Shown: in pieces, positions 5,927-64,000 of the stretch
Layout of the letters: each line of letters opens with the position of its first letter
Position numbering within the stretch: position 1 is the first letter of the stretch
Source: a virus
Lineage: Duplodnaviria > Heunggongvirae > Uroviricota > Caudoviricetes
Direction: 5' to 3' (one strand)
IMG/VR virus record: IMGVR_UViG_3300029841_000009
Coordinates: 4,544-68,543 of that record
Length of the DNA: 64,000 nt
The notes under the pieces: generated by a model
What the model was told of the DNA's origin: nothing
The model's database searches: none
What the model saw: the letters and a program-made list of their open reading frames with translations, nothing else
Made by a program: the position numbers and the translations under genes

Positions 5927-5977
5927 CTTCTTTCTCCATTAGTGGGTCTGTTACGACCCACAGGTTAATAACAGGCG

Positions 5978-6970: not shown

Positions 6971-6978
6971 TTCCTCTC

Positions 6979-9649: not shown

Positions 9650-9663
9650 TTCAATGACTCCGG

Positions 9664-10297: not shown

Positions 10298-10374
10298 GTG
10301 GCATTAGCTCAGTCGGACAGAGCAACCGCCTTCTAAGCGGTTGGTCGCAGGTTCGAATCCTGCATGCCACGCCA
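10298..10374 (+). tRNA. tRNA-Arg (anticodon UCU)
   Basis: Cloverleaf read by hand: acceptor GTGGCAT/ATGCCAC, D-arm GCTC..GAGC, anticodon stem ACCGC/GCGGT with loop CTTCTAA, T-arm GCAGG-TTCGAAT-CCTGC, discriminator G, CCA. Confidence 0.8.
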
Positions 10375-10537
10375 GAATCACGCCTAAGGACCGTGATGCC
10401 AGAAGTTCCAGGTGCTTGGCGGTGATGGTTTCCCTTGAAGGACTATCACCACCCTTTTTACAGCAGGACGCCATTGCGATGACTTCATGCTGTAAACCAG
10501 TACAGCCACGGAAGGCATAACTCATTGCTTCCAGTTC

Positions 10538-10561
10538 GCCCGATTCGCCGGGCATTTTTTT
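10538..10561 (+). terminator. Rho-independent terminator downstream of the tRNA
   Basis: GCCCG-attcgc-CGGGC hairpin followed by ATTTTTTT. Confidence 0.5.
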
Positions 10562-10572
10562 AAGGTGAGATT

Positions 10573-10944
10573 ATGAACGACCAGCAAATCGAAAAAGAAA
10601 TCGTTGAGAAAGGCAAAACGGCACCGCGCGTTACGCCAGACCATATCGAAGGCATTATTGCTCAGGAGGCATATTTCACAGCAGAAGATGGTGCCTTTGG
10701 CAAAGCCATAAAAGAGAAACATACTGGCGGAGAGGTAAACTACCAGCCGCACGAATCACTTTCTCTGCTGACGTTCTGCGTCCTGGTGCTGCGCAACGGC
10801 TTCACCGTCACCGGAGAGAGCGCCTGTGCAAGCCCGGAAAACTTTGATGCGGAAATTGGTCGGAAGATTGCCCGGCAGAATGCTGTAAACAAAATCTGGA
10901 TGCTCGAAGGTTACTTGCTGAAGCAGAAGCTAAGCGAGCAATAA
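10573..10944 (+). CDS. Hypothetical moron protein (opposite orientation to the structural operon)
   Basis: 123-aa ORF with strong SD (AAGGTGAG) 4 nt upstream of the ATG; sits with the tRNA between TerL and portal on the opposite strand. Confidence 0.5.
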   Translation: MNDQQIEKEIVEKGKTAPRVTPDHIEGIIAQEAYFTAEDGAFGKAIKEKHTGGEVNYQPHESLSLLTFCVLVLRNGFTVTGESACASPENFDAEIGRKIARQNAVNKIWMLEGYLLKQKLSEQ

Positions 10945-11034
10945 CGCCGTGACATGTCACAATCAGCCAGCCTATGAGCTGGCTTTGTTTTATCCTCACC
11001 AGAGGATATCAGCAGCATTATCCCATCCAGCGGA

Positions 11035-12510: not shown

Positions 12511-13184
12511 TGATTGCCATCCTGACGTTCTTTCAGTCTCTTCCTGGCTGCCGCTATGCGATCAGCAATTGTCACATTCACATTAACATCCAGGCGTTCT
12601 TTGAATGCGTTGACGTCGACGTGCTTACCAATCAGTTCGAGGTTCTTCACCTTGTCAGGCCATTTAATTTTTTTGAGGATGCCAACCAGCTCTTTCTCGT
12701 CTCCACGGCCTTCGAACATGTCGGCCAGTTCGAAACCTGTCAGGTACTGCCGCCAGACCTTAGGCCATTCCGAGACCGGCTTGATGCTCATATCGTCGTT
12801 GAGAATGTCAATCACGTCCATCTGGTCGATCTCCACCAGGCGCATGAGAACGTAATCAGCACTGACGCGCATTCGTTTGTTGCGCTCCTCCATCAACTCG
12901 GCAATCCGTTTCTGAATGCGTTCATCGCGCATCATGACACTGGCTTTAACTGCCGCTGTATTTGGGGAGAATCCTGCATTAATCGCAGCCTGAGTCTGGT
13001 TTTCAGGCGTTTTGATGTATGACTGGCAATAAGCCTCCTGCATTGCTGTTAGTGGCTTAAATTGCGTTGATTTGCGTTTATAGGTTTTAGGTTCAGCAGG
13101 CATCATAACCACCGTGGTAATAGTTACCGTTGTGGTAATAGTACCATGCAAAATAAAGCCGCCATAGTTGGCGGCAGTATTCAA
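12507..13184 (-). CDS. Terminase small subunit (true start probably near 13106)
   Basis: Helical DNA-binding N-domain pattern (QEAYCQSYIKTPENQTQAAINAGFSPNTAAVKAS) of small terminases; the poly-Thr N-terminal extension in the ORF is probably untranslated. Confidence 0.65.
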   Translation of the reverse strand: MNTAANYGGFILHGTITTTVTITTVVMMPAEPKTYKRKSTQFKPLTAMQEAYCQSYIKTPENQTQAAINAGFSPNTAAVKASVMMRDERIQKRIAELMEERNKRMRVSADYVLMRLVEIDQMDVIDILNDDMSIKPVSEWPKVWRQYLTGFELADMFEGRGDEKELVGILKKIKWPDKVKNLELIGKHVDVNAFKERLDVNVNVTIADRIAAARKRLKERQDGNQ

Positions 13185-13224
13185 AACCCATCAAATTCAT
13201 CATGCATAACCCACTCGTGACATG

Positions 13225-13578
13225 TCACAATATTAATTTCGTTTCATGCCAGCCTTTAGTCACCCAGCATTGCGAGTCACCATTACACGGGCATGAATTC
13301 ACAGGAACTCTCTCGCCGCACTTACCGCAACGTTTTCTGCTGATCGATTTTATACGCCCGTGCACGCGCGCATCATCCTGGCGGATCAGTAACGCTATAT
13401 ACTCACCAAATTCGTAAGGCGCACGCCCGGGGCGACGTGTGGCACAGTTACGCTCCAGCATTTCAATTTCCTGAGCATCAAGCACAATCTCCAGCTTACG
13501 CACACCAGATGCAGCTTGTCTGGCTCTCTGAGCGGCTTTGCGCTCTGCTGCTGCCTTAGCCATTACCATATCCACCAA
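13225..13578 (-). CDS. Hypothetical protein with Cys-rich C-terminus
   Basis: 117-aa ORF upstream of TerS; CGKCG...CPC motif suggests zinc binding. Confidence 0.35.
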   Translation of the reverse strand: MVDMVMAKAAAERKAAQRARQAASGVRKLEIVLDAQEIEMLERNCATRRPGRAPYEFGEYIALLIRQDDARVHGRIKSISRKRCGKCGERVPVNSCPCNGDSQCWVTKGWHETKLIL

Positions 13579-13648
13579 ACTTCACCAGACATGATTCTCG
13601 CAATCACTATCATCACCAAAGTGATAATCACAACTTTAACTGGCGGCA

Positions 13649-14026
13649 TCATTCACCATCCTGCTCCGGCGGTTCTGGCAGCGGCATCCAGTGGGTTACC
13701 TCCTTGAGATACAGGTCTTCGCCACCACCGTCATCCCAAGTGGGCTTGCCATCATTAAACCAGTCGCCATATACGCCGACCTGAGTGTTGGGGATGCTTG
13801 GTGGGTAGTTGTTTTTAAAGTCAGCAGCTAACACATAGCATTGTCGCTCTCCCATTTCTGGCATTCGTTCACTACAGCTTATCCAACTCTCCGGAGTTAC
13901 CGGAGAGTTGCCAGCCTCATACGCCACACGCATCCAGTGCATAAGCGTTTCAGTGCTCACACAGCCGCAATCAACATCAATTTTGCCGTGCTGCTGTTCC
14001 AGCCATTGCTCAAGCGTAGTGCTCAT
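13649..14026 (-). CDS. DUF551-like protein
   Basis: C-terminal THWMPLPEPPE motif typical of lambdoid DUF551 proteins. Confidence 0.55.
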   Translation of the reverse strand: MSTTLEQWLEQQHGKIDVDCGCVSTETLMHWMRVAYEAGNSPVTPESWISCSERMPEMGERQCYVLAADFKNNYPPSIPNTQVGVYGDWFNDGKPTWDDGGGEDLYLKEVTHWMPLPEPPEQDGE

Positions 14027-14256
14027 TTTTCATCCCCCCGATGATGCCATCTGCATCGCATCTCATAACACCCCCACTCAACACGAAAACCACATAGCCT
14101 GTGCAGATCCACCCACTTCTGCGCCATCGCTGGCGACGTGTAAATCACAGTGAATGCGTTATCTTCGTTGTCGATTTGCGTAAACGTCACTTTGTACAAC
14201 AACCCACCGTCGACACATGCTGTGTTCAACGATTTATTGCTAATACCCTCAATCAT
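14023..14256 (-). CDS. Hypothetical protein
   Basis: 77-aa ORF coupled to neighbours. Confidence 0.35.
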   Translation of the reverse strand: MIEGISNKSLNTACVDGGLLYKVTFTQIDNEDNAFTVIYTSPAMAQKWVDLHRLCGFRVEWGCYEMRCRWHHRGDEK

Positions 14257-14900
14257 TCGTACTCACCCCCCGCTGTTTTGAATTTGATCTCCGCTGCCTG
14301 CAATGCGTGTTCGACGTCGAAGCGGTCCAGCCATCCACCAAAGTGGTGCGGCATCATTACCACCCGCTCACCGCTATTTATTGGGTGGCCCATACGGGGT
14401 TCGTAGCCGTCCGGTAACTCGACTTCCCGCGCTTCCAGTTCTGCTATGCGCTTCTCTGATGCTTCAAGTAACGCCTGCTTATCGCGTAGCGCTTCTTCCA
14501 GTTCAGCAACATGGCACTCACTATCAATAAGGTTGTTCTCTGCGGCTTCCAGCTCAACACGCAGCTTCCCTACCGTTAGCGCAATATCCTCGTTCTCTTG
14601 GTCGCGGCGTTTGATGTATTGCTGGTTTCTTTCCCGTTCATCCAACAATGCCAGCACGGTAACTGGATTGGCTGCGGCGATGAATTCAGCATTGGCCTGC
14701 TGTTCCATTTGGAAATCTTCATCGAAACCGCTTTCAGGATGCGCTCCTTCAATTCTGCAAATGGGAAGATATCCAACAACTTCACGATGAATTAGCGCAT
14801 CACCAGCATCAAATCTCTCCTCTCCATATTCTAGCGACCACACACCACACGTTGCTTTTTCTGCCTTAGCACGCAGTGCCTGGTAATTAATTTCGCTCAC
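14253..14900 (-). CDS. Ead/Ea22-like protein
   Basis: N-terminus MSEINYQALRAKAEKA and coiled-coil core LLDERERNQQYIKRRDQENEDIALTVGKLRVELEAAE, as in lambdoid Ead/Ea22 proteins. Confidence 0.55.
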   Translation of the reverse strand: MSEINYQALRAKAEKATCGVWSLEYGEERFDAGDALIHREVVGYLPICRIEGAHPESGFDEDFQMEQQANAEFIAAANPVTVLALLDERERNQQYIKRRDQENEDIALTVGKLRVELEAAENNLIDSECHVAELEEALRDKQALLEASEKRIAELEAREVELPDGYEPRMGHPINSGERVVMMPHHFGGWLDRFDVEHALQAAEIKFKTAGGEYE

Positions 14901-15137: not shown

Positions 15138-15764
15138 TCACTGGTTGCCTCCTTTGCGAAGCTGTTCCGCCCATTCTTCAAGGGATTTCTCCGCATATTC
15201 ACCGGACAGGCCATCAATCGGATGCGCTTCATTAACCAACTCTTCTTTCGCTGACAAAATCATGCGTGTAACGTCGAAAACTTCACGCAAAGACTTATTG
15301 ATAAATCCGTGATTGAACGCAGCAGCAAGACGGCTGGCGGTATAGTTAATCCCCTCGTTGCGTGCTTCCGCACGAATTTCAGCCAGAAAAGCATCGGTAG
15401 CTGGAGTTTCGCTGTGGTGTAGGGCATCATTGATAATCATTGCAGCAACACCAGCCTGCCCTGCATCCGTGACCGACACATGCTCAAGAGTTACGGCCAT
15501 TGCGTGTTTCAGTCCGTCGTTCTCCACCACCAGCGCAGCGAGATTAGTCTCATACTCCGCAATTCGGCACATAGCATCGATATTTGTGTCCTCCAGCCGC
15601 TTAATTTCATCCAGTAGCGCCAGCACAACCTGCGGTGTGACCTTCATACGAAACGCGAGCAATTTTTGCGGCGTTGCCACGACTTTTATTGCTTCTGCTG
15701 CCTCACGCAGTGCCTGGTAATTAATTTCGCTCACTGGTTGCCTCCTGAATACGCTTAAACTCAA
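15138..15764 (-). CDS. Ead/Ea22-like protein (paralog)
   Basis: Contains SEINYQALREAAEA; its 3' ~250 bp is near-identical to 63750-64000. Confidence 0.5.
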   Translation of the reverse strand: MSLSVFRRQPVSEINYQALREAAEAIKVVATPQKLLAFRMKVTPQVVLALLDEIKRLEDTNIDAMCRIAEYETNLAALVVENDGLKHAMAVTLEHVSVTDAGQAGVAAMIINDALHHSETPATDAFLAEIRAEARNEGINYTASRLAAAFNHGFINKSLREVFDVTRMILSAKEELVNEAHPIDGLSGEYAEKSLEEWAEQLRKGGNQ

Positions 15765-17145: not shown

Positions 17146-18213
17146 TCAGGCTTTCAATAGCGATTCTTTCAGATATCGGGCATCAGCCAGGGCATTTGGA
17201 GTAATCTTGCGAACCCATGCATTACGGGTTGGACTCCACTTAAAGGCGCGTGATTTAAGCAGCGAACGAATGTTTGCCTCTGGTTTGCCAGGGAAATAAA
17301 ACAGGATGCGGTTATCCTCTGGATCTATCTCCATAGAAAAGTCGTCGTATTCTTCGCGCTGTGCTCCTGTTACAGACTTGACCGATTCAAGCTCCTTAAT
17401 ACGGCTCTGTAGTCGTTTGATCTCGGCGTTATTGTTGCTCAGTGCGTATGAAGGGAATCCGATGTGCCCACAGAAATCTCCGGCCAGTAACTCTTTGGCT
17501 TCGCTTTCTGTAAACCTGAGATCGATTAATGCAGAAAGCTGCTGTAATTGGTCTTTTTTGTATTTGCGAATGGCCTTATTTGCGGCCTTCATTTTGACGT
17601 GTGACTTCATGCAGCCTTGCAGCTTACGAAGCAACTTAAATAGCGCATCAGGATCATCAGACGAAATTCCATTACGACCAACACCTGCGGCTTTGCTCTC
17701 GTAGTGTGATGCTTTACTTTCGCATTCAACAAACGCTTTTCTTAATAACGCATCAGCTTTAGACAAACGGCGGCGATGGCCTTTCGCGCTATAATGGTCA
17801 ACTAAAATCGGCTGGCCTAACGGGATCACATCCAACAGGTCATGCGCTCGCTTATGCGCTACCGCACCTTCTTTTCTGGCTTTTTCTGCACGAGCAATAT
17901 ATCGGGCAAGACGCGCGTTCTGGCGTTCCTGATAGGTGTTTACGTAATCATCTCCGCGCTGCTGCTGTTCAAGCCATGCTTTGCGCAGATCTTCTGTTAC
18001 GTCCACCAGCTCCGCAGGGATACAACCAGTTTGGGCTTCATAAGAGTAACCATCCTCATAGATACGCCCATCATCTTCAACAAAGAAAAAGGTTTCGTGC
18101 TCATCGCTTTTGACCATACGACCATTAACATGGCGTAATAGGTAGCCAGTATCAGTGCTTAACAGGCTGTTAGGGTTGTTGATCCAGTCAGAAATAATTA
18201 CTTGTTTATTCAT
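17146..18213 (-). CDS. DUF3560-like protein
   Basis: 355 aa; central IPLGQPILVDHYSAKGHRRRLSKAD segment typical of DUF3560. Confidence 0.5.
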   Translation of the reverse strand: MNKQVIISDWINNPNSLLSTDTGYLLRHVNGRMVKSDEHETFFFVEDDGRIYEDGYSYEAQTGCIPAELVDVTEDLRKAWLEQQQRGDDYVNTYQERQNARLARYIARAEKARKEGAVAHKRAHDLLDVIPLGQPILVDHYSAKGHRRRLSKADALLRKAFVECESKASHYESKAAGVGRNGISSDDPDALFKLLRKLQGCMKSHVKMKAANKAIRKYKKDQLQQLSALIDLRFTESEAKELLAGDFCGHIGFPSYALSNNNAEIKRLQSRIKELESVKSVTGAQREEYDDFSMEIDPEDNRILFYFPGKPEANIRSLLKSRAFKWSPTRNAWVRKITPNALADARYLKESLLKA

Positions 18214-18335
18214 CAGATTTCTCCGGTTTAACCAGGGCGGGTATCGCTCGGTTTCGGGTATAACCTTAGGAAATTTTTTCCCACCTGTAAAGCACTTTTT
18301 ATATAAATCTATAATTATATATTTATAGATTTTCG
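18214..18335 (-). promoter_or_regulatory. Conserved promoter-leader cassette, copy 1
   Basis: AT-rich iteron, then -35 TTTACA, 17 bp, -10 TAAGGT, about 50-nt leader with GGAG SD; near-identical copies at 28215-28333 and 58794-58911. Confidence 0.5.
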
Positions 18336-27833: not shown

Positions 27834-28214
27834 TTACTTAACGAGGAATAAAAATGGTTTATCGTTCGGCGGTGTACTCGGGGCTGGCTCGCTTTTGCTC
27901 ATACGATCAGTGTACCAGGCCAGCTCCTTGTCAAAGTAAGCCTGATTAAAATAGGCCATGAATGTGGTTTCAAATCCATAACGACCGCTAATACGCAGCA
28001 TCTGATTGCCGTTCTCTGTTTCCAGATATACCTGGGCACGTTCCTGATTCTCCTTCAGCCAAGTTAAAGCCTCGTCGCACGAGGACACACGATACTCATC
28101 ATCGTAGCCGTCATCGATGCGGCTTGAAGAAGAACGGCAAATCACGCCAACAGAACCAGCCAGGATAGTTTGAATTTTAAGGAAAGCGTTTTTGCGGATT
28201 TTAATCATGCTCAT
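27834..28214 (-). CDS. Hypothetical protein driven by cassette copy 2
   Basis: 126-aa ORF directly downstream of the conserved promoter-leader cassette. Confidence 0.45.
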   Translation of the reverse strand: MSMIKIRKNAFLKIQTILAGSVGVICRSSSSRIDDGYDDEYRVSSCDEALTWLKENQERAQVYLETENGNQMLRISGRYGFETTFMAYFNQAYFDKELAWYTDRMSKSEPAPSTPPNDKPFLFLVK

Positions 28215-28333
28215 CGGGTTATCTCCGGTTTAACCAGGGCGGGTATCGCTCGGTTTCGGGTATAACCATAGGAAATTTTTTCCCACCTGTAAAGCACTTT
28301 TATATAAATCTATAATTATATAATTCTATGAGC
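28215..28333 (-). promoter_or_regulatory. Conserved promoter-leader cassette, copy 2
   Basis: Near-identical to 58794-58911; -35 TTTACA, 17 bp, -10 TATGGT, leader, GGAG SD, ATG. Confidence 0.5.
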
Positions 28334-50625: not shown

Positions 50626-52482
50626 CTATATGGTTACGCCTTTACTTATAACTCTACGGCGTCTTCTACGTATACCTGACGAGTTCTGCACATACACATT
50701 ACCTCGCATTTCCTGTTCGGCAAGCCAGTTAAAATTAGGGTTCAGAATTTCCATCGCGGCAGTTGCATAGTTACGGCAATCAAGAGGCTCGTTACGCTCG
50801 TAGACTTTCACCCACTTTTCTTTTGTCTGCCCATTTTTATATTCAAATATTTTCTTCTCTGATAATAATCCTTTAAAGTATTCGGTATCATATCCTCTGT
50901 CAGAATCTAATGGGAAATGCATATAACCAGGACCAGGATCATGTAGTTTAATTCTTGCCATGATGGTCCCTTTACCATCATCAACCCCCAAATTAAACAA
51001 CATAGCACCCACACGGTTATTATTACTTGGCTTTCCTATAAATGGTAAACCTACCCCACCACGCCCCCTGATAGAGTATATTCGCCTTGATTCTCTCGGC
51101 TTAGTAAAGCGATATACCTCTGTCGTAAAATGCCCACCAGAGTCAATACAAACGGAAGAAATCTGTAATTTTCGACCGTCACGGAATGACCAGCTACGGA
51201 GTAAGTATTCATCAAGTTGTTTCCAGACAACATCTTGTGCGGGATCACCTGGGAATATTTTATATTCTATCCCCCATGACTCCTTACCTTTTCCCCAACC
51301 GACCAATTCACAAACTAAATACGTGTCCTGTACGTCAACACCAGCACTTAACAATAAAACATCATCTGGTAAAAACTCTTCAAACCTTATTCTGCGTTGC
51401 AACAAGTATTCAGGATCGATATCGTCTTTAGCATCCTCTTTCCATGGCTCACCCAGCTTAAGGTTAATAAACTCCATTAATCCATTTTTATCGCGGTTTC
51501 TGGTTGCTTCCGTAAATTCTTCAACCAGCTCTGACAATGCAACCCACGGGGAGTAAAGACTGTTAATATGAAAACCAACAATACCTTTAACTCCAGTATG
51601 TTCAGCTATCCATACCCCCTTCGCCAACCAATCAACGTCTGGTTTACCAGATCCGCGCATAATCCCGCCGCACTCACAGCACTCATATCTGGCCGTTTCC
51701 GGTAACGCCTCACCTGAATCGCTCTTATCCCATCTGACTTGCGACCATTTCATCACCTGCATGGTGCCACAACATGGGCAAGGAACATGGTAGTAACGCT
51801 GATCGGAGAGCTTAAACCACTTGTGGATTTTGCTCGTTTCCTCCAAAACAGGAGTAGAAACAAAAACTTTCTTACGATTATGAAAGTTGGTAGTACGCTG
51901 AATACCTAGTTTTAGTGGGTCGCCCTCCTGCGTCACACCGTAACGATCAATCTCATCAGCTAACAGTATTCGAATTGGCCTGGATGCAAGACCTGCTGGG
52001 GAATTAGCACCAACAAGTGCTATATATCCACCAGCGTAATGCTTCATACGTATAGTCGTGCTGGACTTTTTGGCTGCACCGCGCCCCTCTTTCCCTTCAT
52101 GCAGCTTGTGTTTCAAACCAGGGGAATATTTGAACGTCGGATCAATACGCTCTTTTGAAAAAGCCTCAGCCGCCTCTACCGTTGGATAAATCATCAACTG
52201 AGGAGATGGCTCCTGATCTGCAAAGTAACCCATAACATTTAGCTGTAATTCGGATTTACCAATTTGCGAGCTACATTGCATCACTACTGTTTCTGTATCA
52301 GCGTCACCAATAACATCCATTGGTTCACGCAAATATGGCACTCGGCTTGTACGCCACGGCCCTGGCTCTGGAGACGTTCCCGGCGCTACATGACGATACT
52401 TATCAGCCCATTCGGAAACAGTTAGCCGTGATTTAGGGCGAAGCGCACGGAAAAAAGCGGTGCTCCATACTGTTTCGCCCAT
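50626..52482 (-). CDS. Terminase large subunit (GpA-type)
   Basis: 618 aa with Walker-A-like QCSSQIGKSE; Cys-rich segments VPCPCCG and CCECGG; lambda gpA-like size. Confidence 0.85.
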   Translation of the reverse strand: MGETVWSTAFFRALRPKSRLTVSEWADKYRHVAPGTSPEPGPWRTSRVPYLREPMDVIGDADTETVVMQCSSQIGKSELQLNVMGYFADQEPSPQLMIYPTVEAAEAFSKERIDPTFKYSPGLKHKLHEGKEGRGAAKKSSTTIRMKHYAGGYIALVGANSPAGLASRPIRILLADEIDRYGVTQEGDPLKLGIQRTTNFHNRKKVFVSTPVLEETSKIHKWFKLSDQRYYHVPCPCCGTMQVMKWSQVRWDKSDSGEALPETARYECCECGGIMRGSGKPDVDWLAKGVWIAEHTGVKGIVGFHINSLYSPWVALSELVEEFTEATRNRDKNGLMEFINLKLGEPWKEDAKDDIDPEYLLQRRIRFEEFLPDDVLLLSAGVDVQDTYLVCELVGWGKGKESWGIEYKIFPGDPAQDVVWKQLDEYLLRSWSFRDGRKLQISSVCIDSGGHFTTEVYRFTKPRESRRIYSIRGRGGVGLPFIGKPSNNNRVGAMLFNLGVDDGKGTIMARIKLHDPGPGYMHFPLDSDRGYDTEYFKGLLSEKKIFEYKNGQTKEKWVKVYERNEPLDCRNYATAAMEILNPNFNWLAEQEMRGNVYVQNSSGIRRRRRRVISKGVTI

Positions 52483-52487
52483 GAGGT

Positions 52488-53048
52488 TTATTCTTCCTGC
52501 TTAATAAATCGGGATTCCTGGAGCGCCTGAAGCGCAAAATTAATCTCGTCTTCAATAATGCGTTCGATCTCCCTGGCTGTTTTGCCTTCACAACGGGGAG
52601 CTGCTCTTGGAGCAATACTAAATAAGCGGCTACGCAATTCATTAGCTGCCAGAAATGCATCATCCCTGACCGCATCTTTAGCGATGAGAGAGCCTTCCTT
52701 TTCTTCAAATTCAAGGCGTTTCAGCTTTGCCTGATAAATTTTTTCTGCGGTCTTAGCCTTGTTGAATTGCACCGCAACACCGGAAGTACCACCAGCTAAT
52801 CCGGCATCATCAGCGGGTAACTCTGGTTGTTCCGAAGATATCCCATGCCCTCTTTTTCCATTTTCAGCAGATACCTCACGACCAACCTGTCGGCTCGCTT
52901 CATAAGCCGCACTGGCTTTATCAAAATCCAGCTTGCCGCTTTTCAGCACTGGAATGCGACCGGAACGACAGAGCTTCGTAACCATTGCCGGAGAAATACC
53001 TTTCCGGCGAGCAAACTCTGACTTACTGACGATGGCCATTACTTGCAA
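52488..53048 (-). CDS. Terminase small subunit (HTH-containing; start possibly 53039)
   Basis: N-terminal HTH (SKSEFARRKGISPAMVTKLCRSGRIP); directly upstream of TerL. Confidence 0.55.
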   Translation of the reverse strand: MQVMAIVSKSEFARRKGISPAMVTKLCRSGRIPVLKSGKLDFDKASAAYEASRQVGREVSAENGKRGHGISSEQPELPADDAGLAGGTSGVAVQFNKAKTAEKIYQAKLKRLEFEEKEGSLIAKDAVRDDAFLAANELRSRLFSIAPRAAPRCEGKTAREIERIIEDEINFALQALQESRFIKQEE

Positions 53049-53629
53049 CCATTAGCAAGATACTGAACAAATCCCTCATGCGTTTCATGCGCGTCGTGGT
53101 ACTGACGATAAACATCCAGCAACAATGCAATTTCCATATCCGTCGCGGGAATACGTTCTTTATCAATAGCCAGGTACTTAATTTGAACAACAGGGGAAGA
53201 ATTATCGTCTTCTTCCTGCGGCTGTTCATCGCTTAACATTTCGTCAAGCTCTGCATCATTAAACCCAAGCAGATCAATATCAAAATCATCATCCATTAAC
53301 TCTTTGACTTCTTCGGCCAGAAGCTGCATATCCCAGCCAGCATTTAAGGCCAGCTTGTTATCTGCAATCCTGTAAGCCTTCTTCTGTTTTTCAGAAAGGT
53401 TACTCAACCGAATCGCCGGAACTTTATCCATTTCCAGAATTTCGGCTGCTGCAAGCCGACCATGCCCCGCAATCAGTTCATTCTTTTCATCGATCAGCAC
53501 AGGATTAGTGAAACCGAACTCACGGATACTGTTCACCAACTGTTCAACCTGCTCATCTGAATGAGTCCGTGAATTTTTGGCGTATCTGAGCAGCTTACCG
53601 ACTGGTAAATATTCGATTTTTAGAGCCAT
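53039..53629 (-). CDS. ParB-like nuclease domain protein
   Basis: ParB/Srx N-domain motif LIAGHGRLAAA; paralog of 56296-56919. Confidence 0.65.
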   Translation of the reverse strand: MALKIEYLPVGKLLRYAKNSRTHSDEQVEQLVNSIREFGFTNPVLIDEKNELIAGHGRLAAAEILEMDKVPAIRLSNLSEKQKKAYRIADNKLALNAGWDMQLLAEEVKELMDDDFDIDLLGFNDAELDEMLSDEQPQEEDDNSSPVVQIKYLAIDKERIPATDMEIALLLDVYRQYHDAHETHEGFVQYLANGCK

Positions 53630-53639
53630 TTTTTAACCG

Positions 53640-54000
53640 CCATAACACAACAGGTTAAAGAAAACTGTTTAACTTATTGATACTAAAAGAGAAAAATGAC
53701 GATCTTTTTACTCATAAAAAATCACACAAACCAGCATAATCATCTGATTTTATTAAGTTTTTATAAGTAAAAAGGATCTTGAGATGGTGTTTTGGTTAAA
53801 AGATTGGATGTATTTGCATGATTTATAACGATTTTTATCAGAACAACATCACATTGGTTAAAGATCTGCGCGTATCTTGATGATCTAAAAGAAAATTTTC
53901 TACTTTCTTTTTACCAGCACAAATACAGCAAAAAATCACGTTTTCCCGATATTTTTCAATGAGATGAGTAAATTTCTTTTACCGCAACTTTTAACCTAAC
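53640..54000. repeat. AT-rich region with direct repeats TGGTTAAA(A)GAT (candidate cos/pac or late-promoter region)
   Basis: GGTTAAAG at 53652, 53794, 53856 and inverted TTTAACC at 53989; GATCTTGA repeated. Confidence 0.35.
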
Positions 54001-54186
54001 TTTTTTCACGTTTAGCTAGCCGAACATCGGGGTTCGAATGACCCGCATCCAACGCTTTTGTCCAGAAGGACCCAATTCTGCCGGACGATGAAACGATGCT
54101 CGTGCACCCCCACAGACAGCCAGCGAGCGACGCTACAGAACACAGTGAATACACTCTGCATAACAACACCATCAACCACACGATGA

Positions 54187-54906
54187 TTAACGAGAGAAGG
54201 TCTTGGAAAGAATGTCATCAATAGCCTTTGTGACTTCATCAGCAAACGCATCCTCACCAGCACGCAGCGCCACGCCATGCCAATCAAGACGCTGCGAATA
54301 GTTAGGTTGCTGGATAAACGTAAGGATCAACGTAGGACGCCGCCCAACGCGCTGCCAGACGCCTGGTTGAAGCGGGTTACTTGTACCAGGTCGAACAACA
54401 AAAAACTCCGTAGGCTTGCCCTGACGGCGATTTTGATGCGCATCTCGCTGAACTCTTAGGCCAGATAAGACCTGCTGTAATTGCCCCCGCGAAATATTCC
54501 CGTATTTGTCCAGCTTTGCGCCGGGACCAGGAGCAATCTGCCAGCCGTTAGGCAAATATCCACCAGCCCTTAGCGCCCCTTCTGAGCGTTTGTACTGTCG
54601 TTGGCCACCTTCGATTTGCGGAGTCAACGTTACAGGGGCTGGCGTTCCTCCCCATTCACGAGCATACACAATGGCTGTAGGATCACTCTTCTTTGCGGCC
54701 AAAACGTAAGTAGAGTTCTGAATCCACGGCGTGGGCCTGTCAAATACCCGATTAATTTCATTCTTAATCGCAGCCTGAGAAGCCTTTGCCGTTCTGGTTG
54801 CCGCAAGCGCCATTGCGAACGGCAATTCGCGTTCTTCAAGGCGCTGGAGTTGTCGTTGAATATCCTGAGAAGAAAAATCCATCTTTATCTCAATTCTGTC
54901 AGCCAC
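54187..54906 (-). CDS. Hypothetical protein
   Basis: 239-aa ORF between the ParB-methyltransferase gene and the AT-rich region. Confidence 0.4.
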   Translation of the reverse strand: MADRIEIKMDFSSQDIQRQLQRLEERELPFAMALAATRTAKASQAAIKNEINRVFDRPTPWIQNSTYVLAAKKSDPTAIVYAREWGGTPAPVTLTPQIEGGQRQYKRSEGALRAGGYLPNGWQIAPGPGAKLDKYGNISRGQLQQVLSGLRVQRDAHQNRRQGKPTEFFVVRPGTSNPLQPGVWQRVGRRPTLILTFIQQPNYSQRLDWHGVALRAGEDAFADEVTKAIDDILSKTFSR

Positions 54907-54922
54907 CAGCGCCTCCTACACA

Positions 54923-56302
54923 CTACTTAATCAACGGCCGGAAAGCCGCCAGCACATCATCAGATCGTCCGATTGTTGAACCACCAGGCAACGGCAACTC
55001 AAACTCAAAACGAACAGCTTTCTCCAGACTCGCCCAACTAAGGGAATCATCGTTAATGACGTGCAAATACCAGCTCTTACAGTTGAATATTGACCGCTTA
55101 ATCCTGAAACCATGTACACGACACAACTGCTTCACTTCCTCATCAGAGTGAAACTTCTGGTAAAACCAGTGCCCCTTCCGGTACAACGCGGTAAAACCGT
55201 CATGATCAATAAAATAAAGCCGGCTTTTGGAACTCGCCGCTTGTGTTTGCTTCAGGACTGTTTCCAGTTCTCCACGGCTACGGCCAGAAAAGAATATTGA
55301 CCCACCAGCTTTACACAGGCCTTTCAGAACCGTCAGAACGGACCATTCAGCCTCGACACTATCGACCGAGTTCAAAACGCTATCGCAAATCACGTAGTCG
55401 TAACGCCCTCGCGTTTTTAAGTCGTCCACCAGCGTATCAATCATCCGGTTTGTTGCGGCCCTATCCAGAGTGTTTCCAGCGCCCTTACGGCGGAAAAGCT
55501 CGAGATCATGCAGGTTATATCCCTTTGCCCTGAGCATTCGCGCGTAGTCTCCCTGCCCCGAACCAAAATCAATTCCTCTTGGCGTCTTGGCAATGATCGG
55601 GAGGATCAACGACTCATACAGATTTGATTTCAGGCTGCCACCATTACGCAACCGCATAAGCTGCGCATACGTCTGGATGTATGTTGTTTTCTCCAGATGA
55701 GAATACTCAAATACACCATAAGTTTTATTCAGATAACTTTGGTATTTTTCCTTCTCAACATCAGGGATCACAAACACCGTTAGCGGTGTGCGCGTCATTT
55801 TCGCTGCTAATGCATACTGAGCACAGTGAATAACCTCACCAGACTGAGTAGCAACACAACCACCCCACGGACCATACTTGATAACCAGTTCCGCTATGTT
55901 CTTTCGAACATATGCCATTTTCGCGCGCATATTGCCTGAGATCTGGCTTGCCGATACCTGAACAAAACCATGCTTATCTTCCAGACCGGACACCCTGCAA
56001 CGCTCATCTCCGCTATCAAAATCCGTTCCGTTATGCAGTTGGTTAAACCGTACTTCGTCGTATACCGTCGTTTCACAGGGCAACACATACACCGCAGCAC
56101 GCGTTATTCCCAACTTACGTAGCGCCTTCGTCCTTTGGTGTCCCGCCACCAGCAAATCGCCGCGCACTATCAATGGCTTCACAAGCCCCAGCTCCCTGAC
56201 GCTTTCCGCCAGCCTCGCAAGATCATCCTCACCGATAAAACGCGGGTTATATTCCGCGCCGCGTAGGTGCGTTATGTCGTAATTGAGGTGAAGCATCAGC
56301 AC
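54923..56302 (-). CDS. ParB-like N-domain fused to class I SAM-dependent methyltransferase
   Basis: N-terminal ParB/Srx motif LVAGHQRTKALRKLG; C-terminal motif I IDFGSGQGDYARML and post-I DYVICDSVLN. Confidence 0.65.
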   Translation of the reverse strand: MLMLHLNYDITHLRGAEYNPRFIGEDDLARLAESVRELGLVKPLIVRGDLLVAGHQRTKALRKLGITRAAVYVLPCETTVYDEVRFNQLHNGTDFDSGDERCRVSGLEDKHGFVQVSASQISGNMRAKMAYVRKNIAELVIKYGPWGGCVATQSGEVIHCAQYALAAKMTRTPLTVFVIPDVEKEKYQSYLNKTYGVFEYSHLEKTTYIQTYAQLMRLRNGGSLKSNLYESLILPIIAKTPRGIDFGSGQGDYARMLRAKGYNLHDLELFRRKGAGNTLDRAATNRMIDTLVDDLKTRGRYDYVICDSVLNSVDSVEAEWSVLTVLKGLCKAGGSIFFSGRSRGELETVLKQTQAASSKSRLYFIDHDGFTALYRKGHWFYQKFHSDEEVKQLCRVHGFRIKRSIFNCKSWYLHVINDDSLSWASLEKAVRFEFELPLPGGSTIGRSDDVLAAFRPLIK

Positions 56303-56919
56303 ACCTCCCCAGCCAGCAATGCGGATACAAATCCGATATAGCTGCCATTATCATCAACATAACGAGACACCGCGCAGTCAAAACGATCCGCTTCCTCATC
56401 CGTTGCCGGGATTTTATGACCTCCAAATGACAGGTACTGAACTTTTACGCCTGATTTGGCCTCATCCTTCTCAAATGGGATATCCATACCCTCTGTGTCA
56501 TCGTAGACTGCCGCACTCAATAAGTTATCCAGTTCGCGCTGAGTAAAACCAATTGAGTCCAGAGCAAAATCATCGGCCGCAAGATCTGCAAGCTCCGCGC
56601 TTAACAACTCTTCATCCCAACCAGCATTCAGCGGAATACGGTTGTCGGCCAGACGATATGCCTTCTTCTGATTCTCCGTTAGCCCAGCCAGAACAATGCA
56701 GGGAACATCATCCATCCCCAACTGAGTGGCCGCAGCAATTCGACCATGACCAGCAATTACAACGTTGTTCTCGTCTATCAGGATCGGATTAGTCCATCCG
56801 TACTCCTGTATGCTGGCAACAATCTGATCTACCTGCTCCACGGAGTGTGTGCGAGCGTTCTTTTCATAACCAATCAACACAGAAAGTGGTAAAGAAACCA
56901 CATTAAGATGTTTTGTCAT
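56296..56919 (-). CDS. ParB-like nuclease domain protein (paralog)
   Basis: VIAGHGRIAAA motif; shares architecture and the C-terminal IPATD segment with 53039-53629. Confidence 0.65.
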   Translation of the reverse strand: MTKHLNVVSLPLSVLIGYEKNARTHSVEQVDQIVASIQEYGWTNPILIDENNVVIAGHGRIAAATQLGMDDVPCIVLAGLTENQKKAYRLADNRIPLNAGWDEELLSAELADLAADDFALDSIGFTQRELDNLLSAAVYDDTEGMDIPFEKDEAKSGVKVQYLSFGGHKIPATDEEADRFDCAVSRYVDDNGSYIGFVSALLAGEVC

Positions 56920-57581: not shown

Positions 57582-57606
57582 AAAAGCCCCGCGACACCGC
57601 GAGGCT
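57582..57606 (-). terminator. Rho-independent terminator after the small membrane-peptide pair
   Basis: GCCTCGCG-gtgt-CGCGGGGC hairpin with T5 on the minus strand. Confidence 0.5.
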
Positions 57607-58527: not shown

Positions 58528-58793
58528 TCATCATCTCCTGCCGCACATACAACCTCACAAAAAAAATCAGCAGAATGTTTCTCCTTGAACGAATGACGCT
58601 CAAAACCGCACTCAATATCAGGCGCAAAAACATCCACCACATACGGTCTTTCAGAATGTTTGTTTTCCCAACGATAAACCGTAGTGACGTTGAAATGTTT
58701 TAACGCTTCACGGAACTCAACGCTGCCAGTCAGGTTTTTTGAGGTCAGGTATTGCAGGAGGTTTTTTACTACTTCACGGTCTTGTACTTTCAT
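58524..58793 (-). CDS. Hypothetical protein driven by cassette copy 3
   Basis: 89-aa ORF immediately downstream of the conserved promoter-leader cassette. Confidence 0.45.
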   Translation of the reverse strand: MKVQDREVVKNLLQYLTSKNLTGSVEFREALKHFNVTTVYRWENKHSERPYVVDVFAPDIECGFERHSFKEKHSADFFCEVVCAAGDDE

Positions 58794-58911
58794 CGGGTTA
58801 TCTCCGGTTTAACCAGGGCGGGTATCGCTCGGTTTCGGGTATAACCATAGGAAATTTTTTCCCACCTGTAAAGCACTTTTATATAAATCTATAATTATAT
58901 AATTCTATACC
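58794..58911 (-). promoter_or_regulatory. Conserved promoter-leader cassette, copy 3
   Basis: -35 TTTACA (58872-58867), 17 bp, -10 TATGGT (58849-58844), leader with GGAG SD; AT-rich iteron 58877-58911. Confidence 0.5.
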
Positions 58912-59492
58912 ACTTGCCAGAGAGCATCATGCAACTGGATACTTCCATTGCACTGGTTGCCCCAGCCATGCCAACCATCAGGTAAATCACCGCGAGCAAA
59001 CAGCTCAATACGAGGAACATCACCTAACAGCCTTACCAGCTTGTCACGAACCACATCAGGCTTCCGAGAATGCTCCAGACGAGGCGATGTAAACGACTGA
59101 ATGATCCCCGCATCAAGGCGGGTCGGCAATTTGCCTTTTACCGCAAACAAGCAATCTTCACTGTTTGCACGAGTCATATGCCCCATCCCCATCACCAGCT
59201 TATCTGGTTGTCGGCTACCACATTTGTTCCATGTGAAGCCCTTCATGGTCATAAGCCTGAATCCCCATGCTTTCACCACCAGCAACGCTTCTTCTGGCTG
59301 AGTCGGAACCCACCACATGGCCAACAAACACGATTCAGGATTAGCAAGCTGCCAGACAGGAATACGAGCAATATCCTCAGCTTTCATCGTTGGATACTTA
59401 AAACCAGCTCCACGATTCCCATCCTTACACTTATCTTTGTATTCCCAGGGGGGATCTGCATAAATCAGATTAAACAATGCAATTGCCTCCAT
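58905..59492 (-). CDS. MT-A70 family DNA adenine methyltransferase
   Basis: N-terminal LIYADPPWEY (DPPW catalytic motif); 195 aa. Confidence 0.75.
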   Translation of the reverse strand: MEAIALFNLIYADPPWEYKDKCKDGNRGAGFKYPTMKAEDIARIPVWQLANPESCLLAMWWVPTQPEEALLVVKAWGFRLMTMKGFTWNKCGSRQPDKLVMGMGHMTRANSEDCLFAVKGKLPTRLDAGIIQSFTSPRLEHSRKPDVVRDKLVRLLGDVPRIELFARGDLPDGWHGWGNQCNGSIQLHDALWQVV

Positions 59493-59800: not shown

Positions 59801-59876
59801 TGGTGGCCCCTACCGGATTTGAACCGATGACCGTGCGATTATGAGTCGCCTGCTCTAACCACTGAGCTAAGGGGCC
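59801..59876 (-). tRNA. tRNA with CAU anticodon (tRNA-Ile2-like, or Met)
   Basis: Minus-strand read GGCCCCTTAGCTCAGTGGTTAGAGCAGGCGACTCATAATCGC...GGTTCAAATCC...GGGGCCACCA; close to my recollection of E. coli ileX in acceptor, D and anticodon arms. Confidence 0.8.
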
Positions 59877-61694: not shown

Positions 61695-61840
61695 TTCATA
61701 AAGCAACAAATTACGCGGTAATCGCTTAACGCAGTTTTACTACGTTAAATGAAACACTACACCCAGTTACCACCTAAAACAAGGTTTCTTCATAAAAAAA
61801 CCTTCAAAATGTGGTTGATCGATCAATAAAAAAACAATAC

Positions 61841-62158
61841 TCACAGTAGTGCAGAAAAGAATAGCGGCTTAACTGCTTTCCTCACCTCACTAGCGTACAT
61901 CCCCGCAGCTATCTCAGTTGTGAACAAACGCCCTCCAACTAGCCATGCAACAGGTGCAGATGCCAGGGATGCCAGTGCAATTTCATCTGTAGCAAGCTCT
62001 CTTTCAAGATATTCACGAAATCCGGGGTTAATAGTTACCGTATCCAACATTCTCTGGCGCGCTTCCTTACGTTCACGAATATGGGCAATCAATTGCTCTT
62101 TGGTAAAAGTAGCCATATCACTTTCCTTTCCCATGAAGCATAGCCGCGCGGCAGGCAT
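61841..62158 (-). CDS. Hypothetical protein (probable start at MATFTKEQ, 62116)
   Basis: Contains the LASLASAPVAWL motif shared with the 62118 gene. Confidence 0.35.
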   Translation of the reverse strand: MPAARLCFMGKESDMATFTKEQLIAHIRERKEARQRMLDTVTINPGFREYLERELATDEIALASLASAPVAWLVGGRLFTTEIAAGMYASEVRKAVKPLFFSALL

Positions 62159-62492
62159 TCCAGCCTCTCACCTCTGCAATAGCGGCAACAGCATCAACCG
62201 CGTACATGCTAAGAGGATTAGGCATTGGTTTTTCTTCCGGTACTACTGGCACTGGAGGGGTGGCGTAGAGTGGAACTCCTCCCCCTCCACCAGAAAATTC
62301 ATTGCGAGCGTTATACTCACGACCATCTGCGTCATCACGCATCCACGCCACCGGTTCTGCTTCCAGCGATGCAAGTGCAATTCGTGCCAGTTCTTCCGCT
62401 TCTTCTGCTGGCAGTACAACGTTGCTATCAGGTCCGTATGTTTCGCGCCACTGCTTGATTGTCAGCAGTCGCTCTTTGGTAATAGTGATCAT
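62118..62492 (-). CDS. Hypothetical protein
   Basis: 124-aa ORF with LASLEAEPVAWM motif. Confidence 0.35.
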   Translation of the reverse strand: MITITKERLLTIKQWRETYGPDSNVVLPAEEAEELARIALASLEAEPVAWMRDDADGREYNARNEFSGGGGGVPLYATPPVPVVPEEKPMPNPLSMYAVDAVAAIAEVRGWNACRAAMLHGKGK

Positions 62493-62848
62493 GCCGTATC
62501 CCCTTCTTGATATTTACCGTACCACCAACCATCAGCATTTTTTTCCAGCTCGATGAAAGCTTTTTTATGTCCTGAAGGTATAACCACATCCCCAAACTTT
62601 TTAGTTACTGAGAATGTCCCTCTGCTTGCACCAGACATCTTTGCACCCTTTTCATCCGAGGTTGGCATCACCCTGATCTGCCTGTTTTCCTCATCCAACT
62701 CAACGAAAATAAATCGACTGTTCGATCTGACATCAACTCCGATATAGCACTGCACAGATCCTGATTTTGAATATCTAACGGATATTCCTGCCGTGTCACG
62801 CTTGCGACCTCTGCCACCAGTTATGATTGATACAAAAGCCATACTCAT
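62489..62848 (-). CDS. Hypothetical protein
   Basis: 119-aa ORF coupled to neighbours. Confidence 0.35.
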   Translation of the reverse strand: MSMAFVSIITGGRGRKRDTAGISVRYSKSGSVQCYIGVDVRSNSRFIFVELDEENRQIRVMPTSDEKGAKMSGASRGTFSVTKKFGDVVIPSGHKKAFIELEKNADGWWYGKYQEGDTA

Positions 62849-63531
62849 TCCCCCTTCACGCCAATGCCAGCGGCGCGCTCGGCTTTACTTTGTTCCCAAA
62901 ACCACTTGTGAAGCTCCATAAGCTTTTCGTCAATCGGTGCATATTTGCGATTAAAGTAGGCCTGAGCATCTTTCTCAGATTCGTCCGGCAATTCGCCTGG
63001 GCCAAACAGTGTGTTATAAATCCATGCCAGTCCGCTCTTAGCGTCGCCAGTTGCCTGCCATTCGATAATCGCAGCCTGCATGACCAGAATGTTTTTCCCG
63101 ATTAACAGGTCCAGTTCTTTGTACCGGTTGCGGATGTATGCATTCTCGCTTTGTAATTTTGCGTTGCGCTTCTCTGCGGCTTCCAGCTCAACACGCAGCT
63201 TCCCTACCGTTAGCGCAATTTCCTCGTTCTCCTGGTCGCGTGATTTGATGTATTGCTGGTTTCTTTCCCGTTCATCCAGCAGCGCCTGCACTACTTCAGG
63301 GTTGAAAGCTGCGATATAACGAGCGTTGTTCTCTGCGTTTTTCTGTTCGTCGAATCCTGGCCAGTCGACAATATCTCCGTGATGATTATCACCTGGTGTG
63401 TGTACGGCGTACGTGCCGTATTTGCCCGGCGAAATAAATGCGACCCATTCACCCTGTGTTGCCTTTTCTGCCGCATCACGCAGTGCCTGATAGTCAATTT
63501 TGCTCATTGTGCCTCCTCGATTTCGTCCCAT
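62845..63531 (-). CDS. Ead/Ea22-like protein (probable start at MSKIDYQALRDAAEKA, 63507)
   Basis: Shares MS.I.YQALR.AAEKA and the coiled-coil core LLDERERNQQYIKSRDQENEEIALTVGKLRVELEAAE with 14253-14900. Confidence 0.5.
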   Translation of the reverse strand: MGRNRGGTMSKIDYQALRDAAEKATQGEWVAFISPGKYGTYAVHTPGDNHHGDIVDWPGFDEQKNAENNARYIAAFNPEVVQALLDERERNQQYIKSRDQENEEIALTVGKLRVELEAAEKRNAKLQSENAYIRNRYKELDLLIGKNILVMQAAIIEWQATGDAKSGLAWIYNTLFGPGELPDESEKDAQAYFNRKYAPIDEKLMELHKWFWEQSKAERAAGIGVKGE

Positions 63532-63737
63532 TCCACCCAGGCATTCTCTCCATCAGCATCGATTTCACCTTTGTGACCGCATTTGGAACAGACAGCCTCA
63601 TCACCCGCCCACAAAGAATCTTTGGTTACCGACCATCCTGTTACCTTGGCTTTGCCGTGCTGGCACTTAGGGCAATCATCAAGCCATTCGACTTCGACTG
63701 TTGAAGGACCAAATCCATGTTCAGTTCGGATGCTCAT
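63504..63737 (-). CDS. Small zinc-ribbon-like protein (start at MSIRTEHGF, 63737)
   Basis: Two CxxC pairs (CPKCQ, CSKCG); ATG overlaps the stop of the upstream Ead-like gene. Confidence 0.4.
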   Translation of the reverse strand: MSIRTEHGFGPSTVEVEWLDDCPKCQHGKAKVTGWSVTKDSLWAGDEAVCSKCGHKGEIDADGENAWVEWDEIEEAQ

Positions 63738-64000
63738 AACTGAACTCCTTTGCGAATCTGTTCCGCCCATTCTTCAAGGGATTTCTCCGCATATTCACCG
63801 GACAGGCCATCAATCGGGTACGGTTCATTAGCCAACTCTTCTTTCGCTGACAGAATCATGCGCGTAACGTCGAAAACTTCACGCAAAGACTTATTGATAA
63901 ATCCGTGATTGAACGCAGCAGCAAGACGGCTGGCGGTATAGTTAATCCCCTCGTTGCGTGCTTCCGCACGAATTTCAGCCAGAAAAGCATCGGTAGCTGG
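63734..64000 (-). CDS. Ead/Ea22-like protein, C-terminal part (gene runs off the right edge)
   Basis: Near-identical at DNA level to the 3' end of 15138-15764; stop TGA at 63734-63736. Confidence 0.5.
   Translation of the reverse strand, partial: PATDAFLAEIRAEARNEGINYTASRLAAAFNHGFINKSLREVFDVTRMILSAKEELANEPYPIDGLSGEYAEKSLEEWAEQIRKGVQL

Follow-up and report, generated by a model that had tools for sequence, protein, structure and literature searches.

A conserved pairing of a small ParB-like protein with a ParB-methyltransferase fusion ahead of phage terminase genes

The window analyzed here is the whole of a 64,000-nucleotide stretch of tailed-phage DNA (Caudoviricetes; IMG/VR record IMGVR_UViG_3300029841_000009, positions 4,544 to 68,543), and our subject is the group of genes just upstream of its terminase: two small ParB-like proteins, which we call ParB-S1 and ParB-S2, a fusion of a ParB/Srx domain to a class I S-adenosylmethionine (SAM) methyltransferase, and a 239-amino-acid protein, p239. 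A preliminary description had read these four genes as one module for DNA modification, anti-restriction or packaging-associated nuclease activity. We describe instead a gene pair, one small ParB together with the fusion, that recurs before the terminases of many phages, and we consider what such a pair might do.

Organization of the locus around a probable cos site

From 14.5 to 64 kb, the window is about 99% identical to circular E. coli plasmids of about 48 kb, with matches in 72 of 5,426 complete genomes, at 79 places in all, 78 of them on plasmids. Because genes for RepA, ParA, lysis, a lambda-like head, and a contractile tail are present on these plasmids, we regard the element as a phage-plasmid; the databases also hold infectious relatives, the Yersinia phages vB_YpM_39, 41, and 44. 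The cassette formed by ParB-S2 and the fusion lies between the lysis genes and the terminase, all on the same strand, and the features of the region are as follows, in the direction of transcription.

56296-56919, minus strand: ParB-S2, 207 amino acids, isoelectric point (pI) 4.3; PHROG 620 ('ParB-like', E 4e-74); ParB_N (E 4e-5, 23.9 bits)
54923-56296, minus strand: ParB-(ParB-like)-methyltransferase fusion, 457 amino acids, pI 9.1; PHROG 5475 ('unknown function'); ParB_N; Methyltransf_23
56012-56296, minus strand: fusion residues 1-95, ParB/Srx nucleotide-binding domain; invariant YNPR, AGHQR, and FNQLHNGTD, with Box II GHQRTKA
55712-55984, minus strand: fusion residues ~105-195, probable degenerate ParB/Srx-like domain; HCAQY in place of GxxR
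55052-55591, minus strand: fusion residues ~236-415, class I SAM methyltransferase, UbiG-like; motif I DFGSGQGDY, acidic E266, motif IV CDSVLNSVD
54187-54906, minus strand: p239, 239 amino acids, pI 10.1; PHROG 1924 (E 3e-97); HK97-gp10-like (neck/tail-completion) fold; last gene before the cohesive-end site (cos)
54028-54044, minus strand: probable cosN, conserved block GGGTCATTCGAACCCCG, with a probable 12-nt cohesive end GGTCATTCGAAC at 54032-54043
53632-53996, no strand: cosB-like AT-rich region, five TTTAACC/GGTTAAA repeats between cosN and the start of ParB-S1
53039-53629, minus strand: ParB-S1, 196 amino acids, pI 4.5; PHROG 620 (E 5e-75); ParB_N (E 4e-8, 33.7 bits)
52488-53039, minus strand: TerS (terminase small subunit), 183 amino acids from the ATG at 53039; PHROG 57 (E 7e-42); RefSeq annotation of a 99%-identical plasmid
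50626-52482, minus strand: TerL (terminase large subunit), lambda GpA type, 618 amino acids; GpA_ATPase (E 7e-76), GpA_nuclease (E 1e-84)

Open reading frames on the minus strand were confirmed for ParB-S2, the fusion, p239, ParB-S1, TerS, and TerL, the two terminase genes following directly downstream of ParB-S1. Together with the PHROG 620, PHROG 5475, and Pfam matches, this bears out the earlier view of three co-oriented ParB/Srx-domain genes, one of them a methyltransferase fusion, just upstream of TerS and TerL; against the Pfam gathering score for ParB_N (PF02195) of 26.3 bits, ParB-S1 scores above, and ParB-S2 and the fusion just under. The earlier account of the fusion gene, whose Box II is GHQR rather than GHGR, stands as to its ParB and class I SAM methyltransferase domains and is amended in one respect, the start most likely being the ATG at 56296 (457 amino acids) and not the GTG at 56302, because RefSeq and a 100%-identical database protein (P0001) have 457 amino acids and this ATG overlaps the upstream stop codon. 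That overlap, between the ParB-S2 stop and the fusion ATG, reads TGATG and lies behind a GGGGAGG ribosome-binding site, and ParB-S1, the first gene after cos, ends in a similar overlap with the TerS start, TAATG. By these overlaps, ParB-S2 is translationally coupled to the fusion and ParB-S1 to TerS. The fusion and p239 are spaced by 16 nt.

Between p239 and ParB-S1 lies a gap of 557 bp in which a single block, GGGTCATTCG(A/T)ACCCCG, is strongly conserved, the rest having diverged among relatives whose fusion proteins are 90% and 69% identical. Two virion-derived Yersinia phage records start inside this block, exactly 12 nt apart: that of vB_YpM_39 begins GGTCATTCGAAC|CCCGATG, and that of vB_YpM_44 begins CCCGATG and ends in GGTCATTCGAAC. 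Because the two starts are 12 nt apart within the conserved block of the gap, we infer a probable 12-nt cohesive end, GGTCATTCGAAC, at 54032-54043 of the window. The TTTAACC/GGTTAAA heptamer beside it occurs five times against 0.10 expected (none of 20,000 composition-matched shuffles reached five), and the relative L015 of our survey has 11 TTAACC copies in the equivalent 662 bp. The probable cos would divide the region between the two ends of the virion chromosome, so that the bracketing of the methyltransferase by ParB genes spans the junction of these ends and the virion order would be cos, ParB-S1, TerS, TerL, and on through the lysis genes and the stand-alone MT-A70 family methyltransferase described below to ParB-S2, the fusion, p239, and cos. 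The idea of a four-gene module gives way here, since the probable cos separates p239 from ParB-S1. The best explanation of the region is a right end bearing ParB-S2 and the fusion as a mobile late-gene cassette, followed by p239, and a left end on which ParB-S1 is coupled to TerS.

The fusion enzyme and its small ParB partner

The fusion matches PHROG 5475 over 457 of 458 positions (E 6e-265). Its Pfam matches are to ParB_N (E 3e-5, 24.3 bits) and, above cutoff, Methyltransf_23 (PF13489, E 1e-7), the sole other being Methyltransf_12, and a profile of the family matches Bacillus subtilis Spo0J (structure 6sdk, E 2e-8) and UbiG (E 1e-6). An AlphaFold2 model (predicted local distance difference test score 94.5) shows a ParB domain at residues 1-95, a second domain at about 105-195, a class I methyltransferase at about 236-415, and C-terminal helices. 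Across 64 homologues YNPR, AGHQR, FNQLHNGTD, DFGSGxG, E266, and D305/N309/D312 are invariant. The first domain aligns with the small-ParB family at an hhalign probability of 98.7% (E 2e-16). The second has the same order of strands and helices in the model and weak, in-register profile matches to the first domain (E 0.098) and to the small-ParB family (E 0.005); from these matches and the loss of GxxR, residues ~105-195 are probably a second, degenerate ParB-like domain. The methyltransferase domain resembles many class I methyltransferases at a Foldseek probability of 1.00, its neighbors by structure or profile being UbiG, Trm9, METTL6, GNMT-type enzymes, CcbJ, a protein lysine methyltransferase, and Hen1, at 11-16% identity. 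The canonical motif IV of DNA methyltransferases, (D/N/S)PP(Y/F/W) or PC, was not found in the fusion, nor was a match to PF01555, PF02384, PF05063, or PF00145. We therefore rejected a canonical N6-adenine, N4-cytosine, or 5-cytosine DNA methyltransferase, on the strength of the DSVLN motif IV, the family matches, and the UbiG/Trm9/GNMT-type neighbors.

Over about 200 residues, ParB-S1 and ParB-S2 share 48% identity (E 5e-62), and they have in common a GHGR motif and a C-terminal 'IPATD' segment, so that the paralogy noted earlier is upheld, and these features prove to be family-wide. Among 42 non-redundant homologues, G55-H56-x-R58 is kept at 90% or more, E166, G182, G186, and F187 are conserved as well, and the small ParBs retain the nucleotide-pocket residues N19, GHxR, and D90-N91 (Box III being ADN). 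ParB-S2 opens with a nucleotide-binding domain (motifs N-x-R, GHGR, and ADN), continues with an acidic linker, and closes with a conserved C-terminal domain of about 45 amino acids. The nuclease label of the preliminary description finds no support in our analysis, the conserved residues being the nucleotide-binding positions of Boxes I, II, and III and a homologue of the fusion being an ATP binder (see below). The linkers of the two proteins, at about residues 101-150 (53101-53188 and 56320-56469 of the window), carry net charges of -17 and -14 over 50 residues, and in sequence they may resemble DNA-mimic anti-restriction proteins.

The association of a small ParB with the fusion extends far beyond this element. 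We surveyed 77 viral loci with the fusion, 64 of them evaluable for an upstream small ParB, and found one immediately upstream of the fusion, often overlapping it, in 60 of the 64; in the other four it lies slightly further off or was probably missed at the threshold used. The same holds for most loci in genomes, where the pair occurs in Pseudomonadota, Bacillota, Bacteroidota, Chloroflexota, Planctomycetota, Myxococcota, Chlorobiota, and Kiritimatiellota (at least eight phyla). Homologues of the fusion number at least 716, uniform in length and 45-100% identical, and a search of 1.84 billion representative proteins at E<=1e-30 gave 311 clusters at 50% identity. Two metagenomic proteins of 658-659 amino acids (P0366 and P0369) hold a complete small ParB, including its C-terminal domain, and the fusion in one chain, which argues that the two work together, and we think that they probably do. 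Five Chloroflexales genomes (L103, L105, L108, L110, and L111) carry the fusion as two or three tandem paralogues, a sign that the enzyme may have diversified in filamentous Chloroflexota.

Since 60 of the 64 evaluable viral loci have a small ParB directly upstream of the fusion, its presence there is not unusual, contrary to what had first been thought of paralog duplication around the methyltransferase; this is the rule of the family, and only the TerS-coupled copy is peculiar to a lineage. Among viral loci, ParB-S1 is found only in close relatives (L010, L012, L013, and L015), and the E. coli plasmids and phage records matching the stretch have it as well. The two halves of the paralogue bracket thus call for separate explanations, one small ParB being the enzyme's obligate partner and the other a lineage-specific copy across cos.

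Terminase genes follow the pair, of the GpA type in 18 of 60 loci and of the Terminase_6, TerL_ATPase/TerL_nuclease (Terminase_1-type), and Terminase_3 families among the loci sampled; the pair precedes terminases of at least four families. In addition, a Cys/His protein of about 150 amino acids, which we call c150, comes after or near the fusion in 52 of 77 viral loci, sometimes converging on the fusion gene. It occurs among loci L020-L085 and L092-L131 of the survey (for example, L021:2595-3044 and L031:2045-2479), follows the pattern YLWxKxVxGFD...HCARCL...YLCGV...NLH...TCRNFQFG, and has no match in Pfam or PHROG. It may be a third component of the system.

The domain architecture itself has already been catalogued. 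Kaljevic, Sukhoverkov, Johnson, Hocher, and Le (bioRxiv 10.1101/2025.10.10.680097) record ParB-fold/Methyltransf_23 fusions of the same architecture as enriched in phages and prophages, their function unknown. One of them, GA118 (gut phage uvig_65837_18), has a Box II, GHQRTKA, identical to that of the window's fusion and is an ATP binder according to Supplementary Table 6 of the preprint; the visible part of its sequence is 41% identical to our fusion over the N-terminal domain (E 2e-19) and has the family motifs. An R-to-A pocket mutant of GA118 was also built, and the main text reports that such mutants lost binding in the nucleotide-binding proteins. Those parts of the preprint available to us cover domain pairing and nucleotide binding, and in them there is no small-ParB partner, degenerate second domain, c150, pre-terminase position, or function. 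Nothing in the literature that we read describes the obligate set of three parts, how widely it occurs, or its constant link to packaging genes.

Two further groups of proteins bear on how the small ParBs may work. O'Toole et al. (bioRxiv 10.1101/2025.08.14.668559) found that phage ParB-like proteins activate T-dioxygenases (5mYOX clade E) and are needed for DNA oxidation in vivo. These activators consist of a nucleotide-binding domain, a linker, and a C-terminal domain with no DNA-binding domain, and they show Q-to-N in Box I and E-to-H/D in Box II. The small ParBs here appear to have the same domain plan, with Asn in Box I and His/Asp in Box II, and a modifying enzyme adjoins in both cases, the loci of O'Toole et al. 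likewise often lying near terminases. The partner there, however, is a TET/JBP dioxygenase, whereas here it is a SAM methyltransferase that itself carries ParB domains, and in the annotation of the 99%-identical plasmid we found no genes for a dioxygenase or for T hypermodification. The second group comprises ParB fusions to N6/N4 DNA methyltransferases (PHROG 498, PF01555; matched also as the PADLOC model MTase_II, E 2e-40), whose first 150 or so residues match both small ParBs (E ~1e-50, 30-60% identity) and which also sit near terminase genes. The small ParBs differ from them in having no methyltransferase domain and a different C-terminal domain of about 45 amino acids, and the methyltransferase of our fusion differs in belonging to another family, unlike that of DNA methyltransferases. 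A PADLOC defense search matched only the ParB part of this Type II methyltransferase model, and on that ground a known defense or anti-defense family was set aside. ParB domains in phage conflict proteins have been discussed as modules regulated by nucleoside triphosphates (Iyer et al., PMC5512222).

What the pair may act on

We give a probability of roughly 0.4 to the reading that the small ParB and the fusion are a nucleotide-gated, two-protein complex that carries out a non-canonical methylation of the phage's nucleic acid in late infection, DNA on its way to being packaged as the most probable target. The small ParB, with its nucleotide-binding and C-terminal domains and no DNA-binding domain, would be the partner or activator subunit and would complex with the enzyme. 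Nucleotide in the GxxR pockets, likely ATP by analogy with the homologue GA118, would gate the complex. The basic enzyme would then methylate phage nucleic acid late in infection, most probably replicated DNA awaiting packaging, through a chemistry other than ordinary N6-adenine, N4-cytosine, or 5-cytosine methylation, and the purpose might be that progeny DNA is protected or marked. The charges of the proteins, basic for the enzyme and acidic for its partners, fit these roles. This reading builds on what the sequences establish, namely domain content, gene coupling, conservation of the pair, single-chain fusions, a position before many types of terminase, and, at the level of sequence, the location of the probable cos, and on work elsewhere that demonstrated ATP binding by a homologue and ParB-dependent activation of another phage DNA-modifying enzyme; from there to complex formation, late expression, a DNA substrate, and a biological purpose, we infer. 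DNA is favored as the substrate because this ParB subtype is repeatedly fused to DNA methyltransferases, because the ParB-activated dioxygenases offer a precedent, and because the cassette is kept before terminases. Of the early proposal of a DNA-modification module, then, nucleic-acid modification survives as the most likely function, while a canonical DNA methyltransferase, given motif IV and the UbiG/Trm9-type neighbors, does not.

Several observations weigh against this reading. The case for DNA is one of association, because the enzyme bears no DNA-methyltransferase signature and its neighbors, at 11-16% identity, act on small molecules, tRNA, and proteins; the top 50 structural matches of the methyltransferase domain include no DNA methyltransferase. 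No DNA-binding domain or helix-turn-helix was found in ParB-S1, ParB-S2, or the fusion by Pfam and NCBIfam-type profile searches, and the acidic stretch of the small ParBs would also suit a DNA mimic or a protein-binding role. The phage already has an ordinary DNA methyltransferase, the MT-A70 protein at 58905-59492. Late expression is read from gene order, and a promoter and terminator scan of the region gave sites no commoner than in shuffled sequence, save for one strong hairpin upstream of the cassette. Finally, a hidden Markov model search of all six frames of the window found no c150, and as c150 accompanies the pair in most other lineages, the system may be incomplete or altered in this phage.

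A bolder form of the proposal, which seems to us rather unlikely as it stands, would make the small ParB, the ParB-ParB*-methyltransferase (ParB* being the degenerate domain), and, in most lineages, c150 a hitherto undescribed, ATP-gated phage system that puts a non-canonical methyl mark on DNA. That mark would not be N6-methyladenine, N4-methylcytosine, or 5-methylcytosine and could fall, for example, on the backbone, on the ends, or at an unusual base position, with the system acting at the hand-over of DNA to the terminase in phages of at least eight phyla.

The alternative that survives best is a substrate other than DNA, a small molecule, nucleotide, RNA, or protein, in which case the ParB/Srx domains would be enzymes or sensors that use ATP, in the manner of sulfiredoxin and SerK, instead of switches associated with DNA; candidates would include a host factor, a signaling nucleotide, tRNA, a virion or packaging protein, or the acidic small ParB itself. 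It would account for the closest folds and sequences of the methyltransferase, from UbiG and Trm9 to METTL6, GNMT, CcbJ, protein lysine methyltransferase, and Hen1, for the absence of DNA methyltransferases among the 50 best matches, for a motif IV of the small-molecule type, and for a canonical DNA methyltransferase being already in the phage. It also agrees with GA118, which binds ATP rather than CTP, and with the discussion in the same preprint (10.1101/2025.10.10.680097) of ATP-binding members of the fold that are true enzymes. However, the family is kept at 33-60% identity over at least eight phyla, a pattern that points to a universal rather than a host-specific target; its place at the head of the packaging genes is fixed, the ParB subtype of the partner is otherwise fused to DNA methyltransferases, and a late-gene position would be unusual for anti-defense factors acting at entry. 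On balance we consider a non-DNA substrate unlikely, though the most serious competitor to DNA methylation by the pair.

A role in packaging itself appears improbable. The ParB-like proteins, most plausibly the TerS-coupled ParB-S1, would here be nickases or terminase helpers binding DNA ends or cos, like the HNH endonucleases that accompany HK97-type terminases. ParB-S1 is suitably placed, as the first gene past cos and the repeat array with its stop codon overlapping the TerS start (TAATG), nearly every locus has the cassette ahead of a terminase, several of the long contigs stop 0-520 nt upstream of the small ParB gene, and a ParB-methyltransferase beside the terminase genes of a Bacillus cereus ATCC 10987 prophage nicks DNA non-specifically (PMC3592412). 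The cassette occurs, however, with at least four unrelated terminase families, probably differing in packaging strategy, which argues against a helper for cos-specific cleavage. Phages with a p239 homologue before a GpA-type terminase package their DNA although no ParB gene was called within 6 kb upstream. The conserved residues belong to a nucleotide pocket, the small ParBs are highly acidic with no recognizable DNA-binding domain, and the invariant SAM-binding methyltransferase would be left unexplained.

That the three proteins are ParB components for plasmid partition or ParB-type silencing, segregating the phage-plasmid prophage, is very improbable even though the prophage is a low-copy-type plasmid that carries RepA and ParA and even though depositors label the small proteins 'chromosome (plasmid) partitioning protein' (the Yersinia pestis phage HQ103 paper and an E. 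coli phage-like-plasmid preprint give these genes only a 'ParB partition protein' label), and we rejected it because the only parA of the element is about 31 kb away, with its own small downstream gene, the TIGR00180 scores of 29.8, 16.4, and 40.1 bits fall below the cutoff of 58.45 with only the N-terminal 75 or so residues aligning, and no helix-turn-helix was found. Compared with the CTP-dependent clamps ParB, Spo0J, and Noc, our proteins share the N-terminal fold and the GxxR arginine but have no adjacent ParA, and the GA118 homologue binds ATP; Box II is GHGR or GHQR, not GERR, as Box III the small ParBs have ADN and the fusion has FNQLHN, and the canonical GERRxR and ENLQR motifs are not present. 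Homologous cassettes also stand next to terminases in integrated prophages and lytic-type contigs.

Neighboring features and significance of the pair

We treat p239 as a virion or packaging-associated protein outside the enzyme cassette. Its fold is like that of HK97 gp10, with no sequence match to the gp10 family of Pfam; searches of Pfam, NCBIfam, and PDB gave no sequence match, and Foldseek gave nothing with E<1. Compared with the gp10 family, p239 is twice as long, has long terminal helices, and is encoded at the far right end of the genome rather than in the head-tail block. It accompanies the fusion only in close relatives (L009-L015); homologues elsewhere (for example, L086:6001-6729 and L087:6001-6747) are regularly the last gene before TerS and a GpA-type TerL, with no ParB gene called in the upstream regions described above. 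Membership of the enzyme module was rejected on this restricted co-occurrence, on the GpA-type terminase loci without a called ParB gene, and on the virion-protein fold. In Pseudomonas phages F10, MD8, and JBD68, too, the p239 family lies at the right end of the genome and apart from the remaining head-tail genes.

The stand-alone MT-A70 family methyltransferase at 58905-59492 (E 3e-23) and a tRNA gene at 59804-59876 lie 2-3 kb upstream of the cassette, and in an RNA-family search of 52.0-60.5 kb the tRNA alone reached significance. The N-terminal part of PHROG 21315 is matched by the small ParBs and its C-terminal part by the MT-A70 protein, and therefore ParB-MT-A70 fusions probably exist; the small ParBs could be partners of the MT-A70 enzyme too. 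Just upstream of the 136-amino-acid gene that precedes ParB-S2, a terminator-like hairpin on the minus strand (57585-57606; 9 bp, seven of them G-C, followed by TTTTATTTT) may serve as a regulated terminator inside the late transcript. A repeat of 113-122 bp occurs in three copies of 94-100% identity (18209-18327, 28211-28329, and 58790-58908), each of which, on the minus strand, runs up to a gene's start codon or to within a few bases of it (the genes being those for a DUF3560 protein, a 126-amino-acid hypothetical protein, and an 89-amino-acid open reading frame). The copies have an AT-rich 5' half and GGTTAAA, the heptamer repeated beside cos, and the repeat looks like a shared promoter or leader. 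Outside the 48-kb plasmid, positions 1-14500 of the window come from a different E. coli prophage, an unrelated and common chromosomal one with portal, capsid, and SLT transglycosylase, and 63745-64000 is 97% alike to 15149-15404, the region concerned also taking in 61839-64000. From the foreign first 14.5 kb and this likeness, the window is either a junction of two phage elements or the product of recombination in the ead/Ea22-like region.

Recent work has recognized ParB-fold proteins as versatile nucleotide switches, and in 2025 one class of small phage ParBs was shown to switch on a DNA-modifying dioxygenase. The locus described here offers a second and much more widespread candidate pairing of a ParB with an enzyme, with about 300 clusters at 50% identity in at least eight phyla, in which the enzyme itself carries ParB domains and its methyltransferase is unlike known DNA methyltransferases. 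Testing the system should be straightforward, with E. coli as the host and with infectious relatives that were isolated on Yersinia pestis. Should the pair modify DNA, both the phage DNA modification and this use of the ParB switch would be new, with a bearing on restriction evasion, host range in phage therapy, and enzyme tools; should its target be something other than DNA, the family would still mark an uncharacterized late function of phages.

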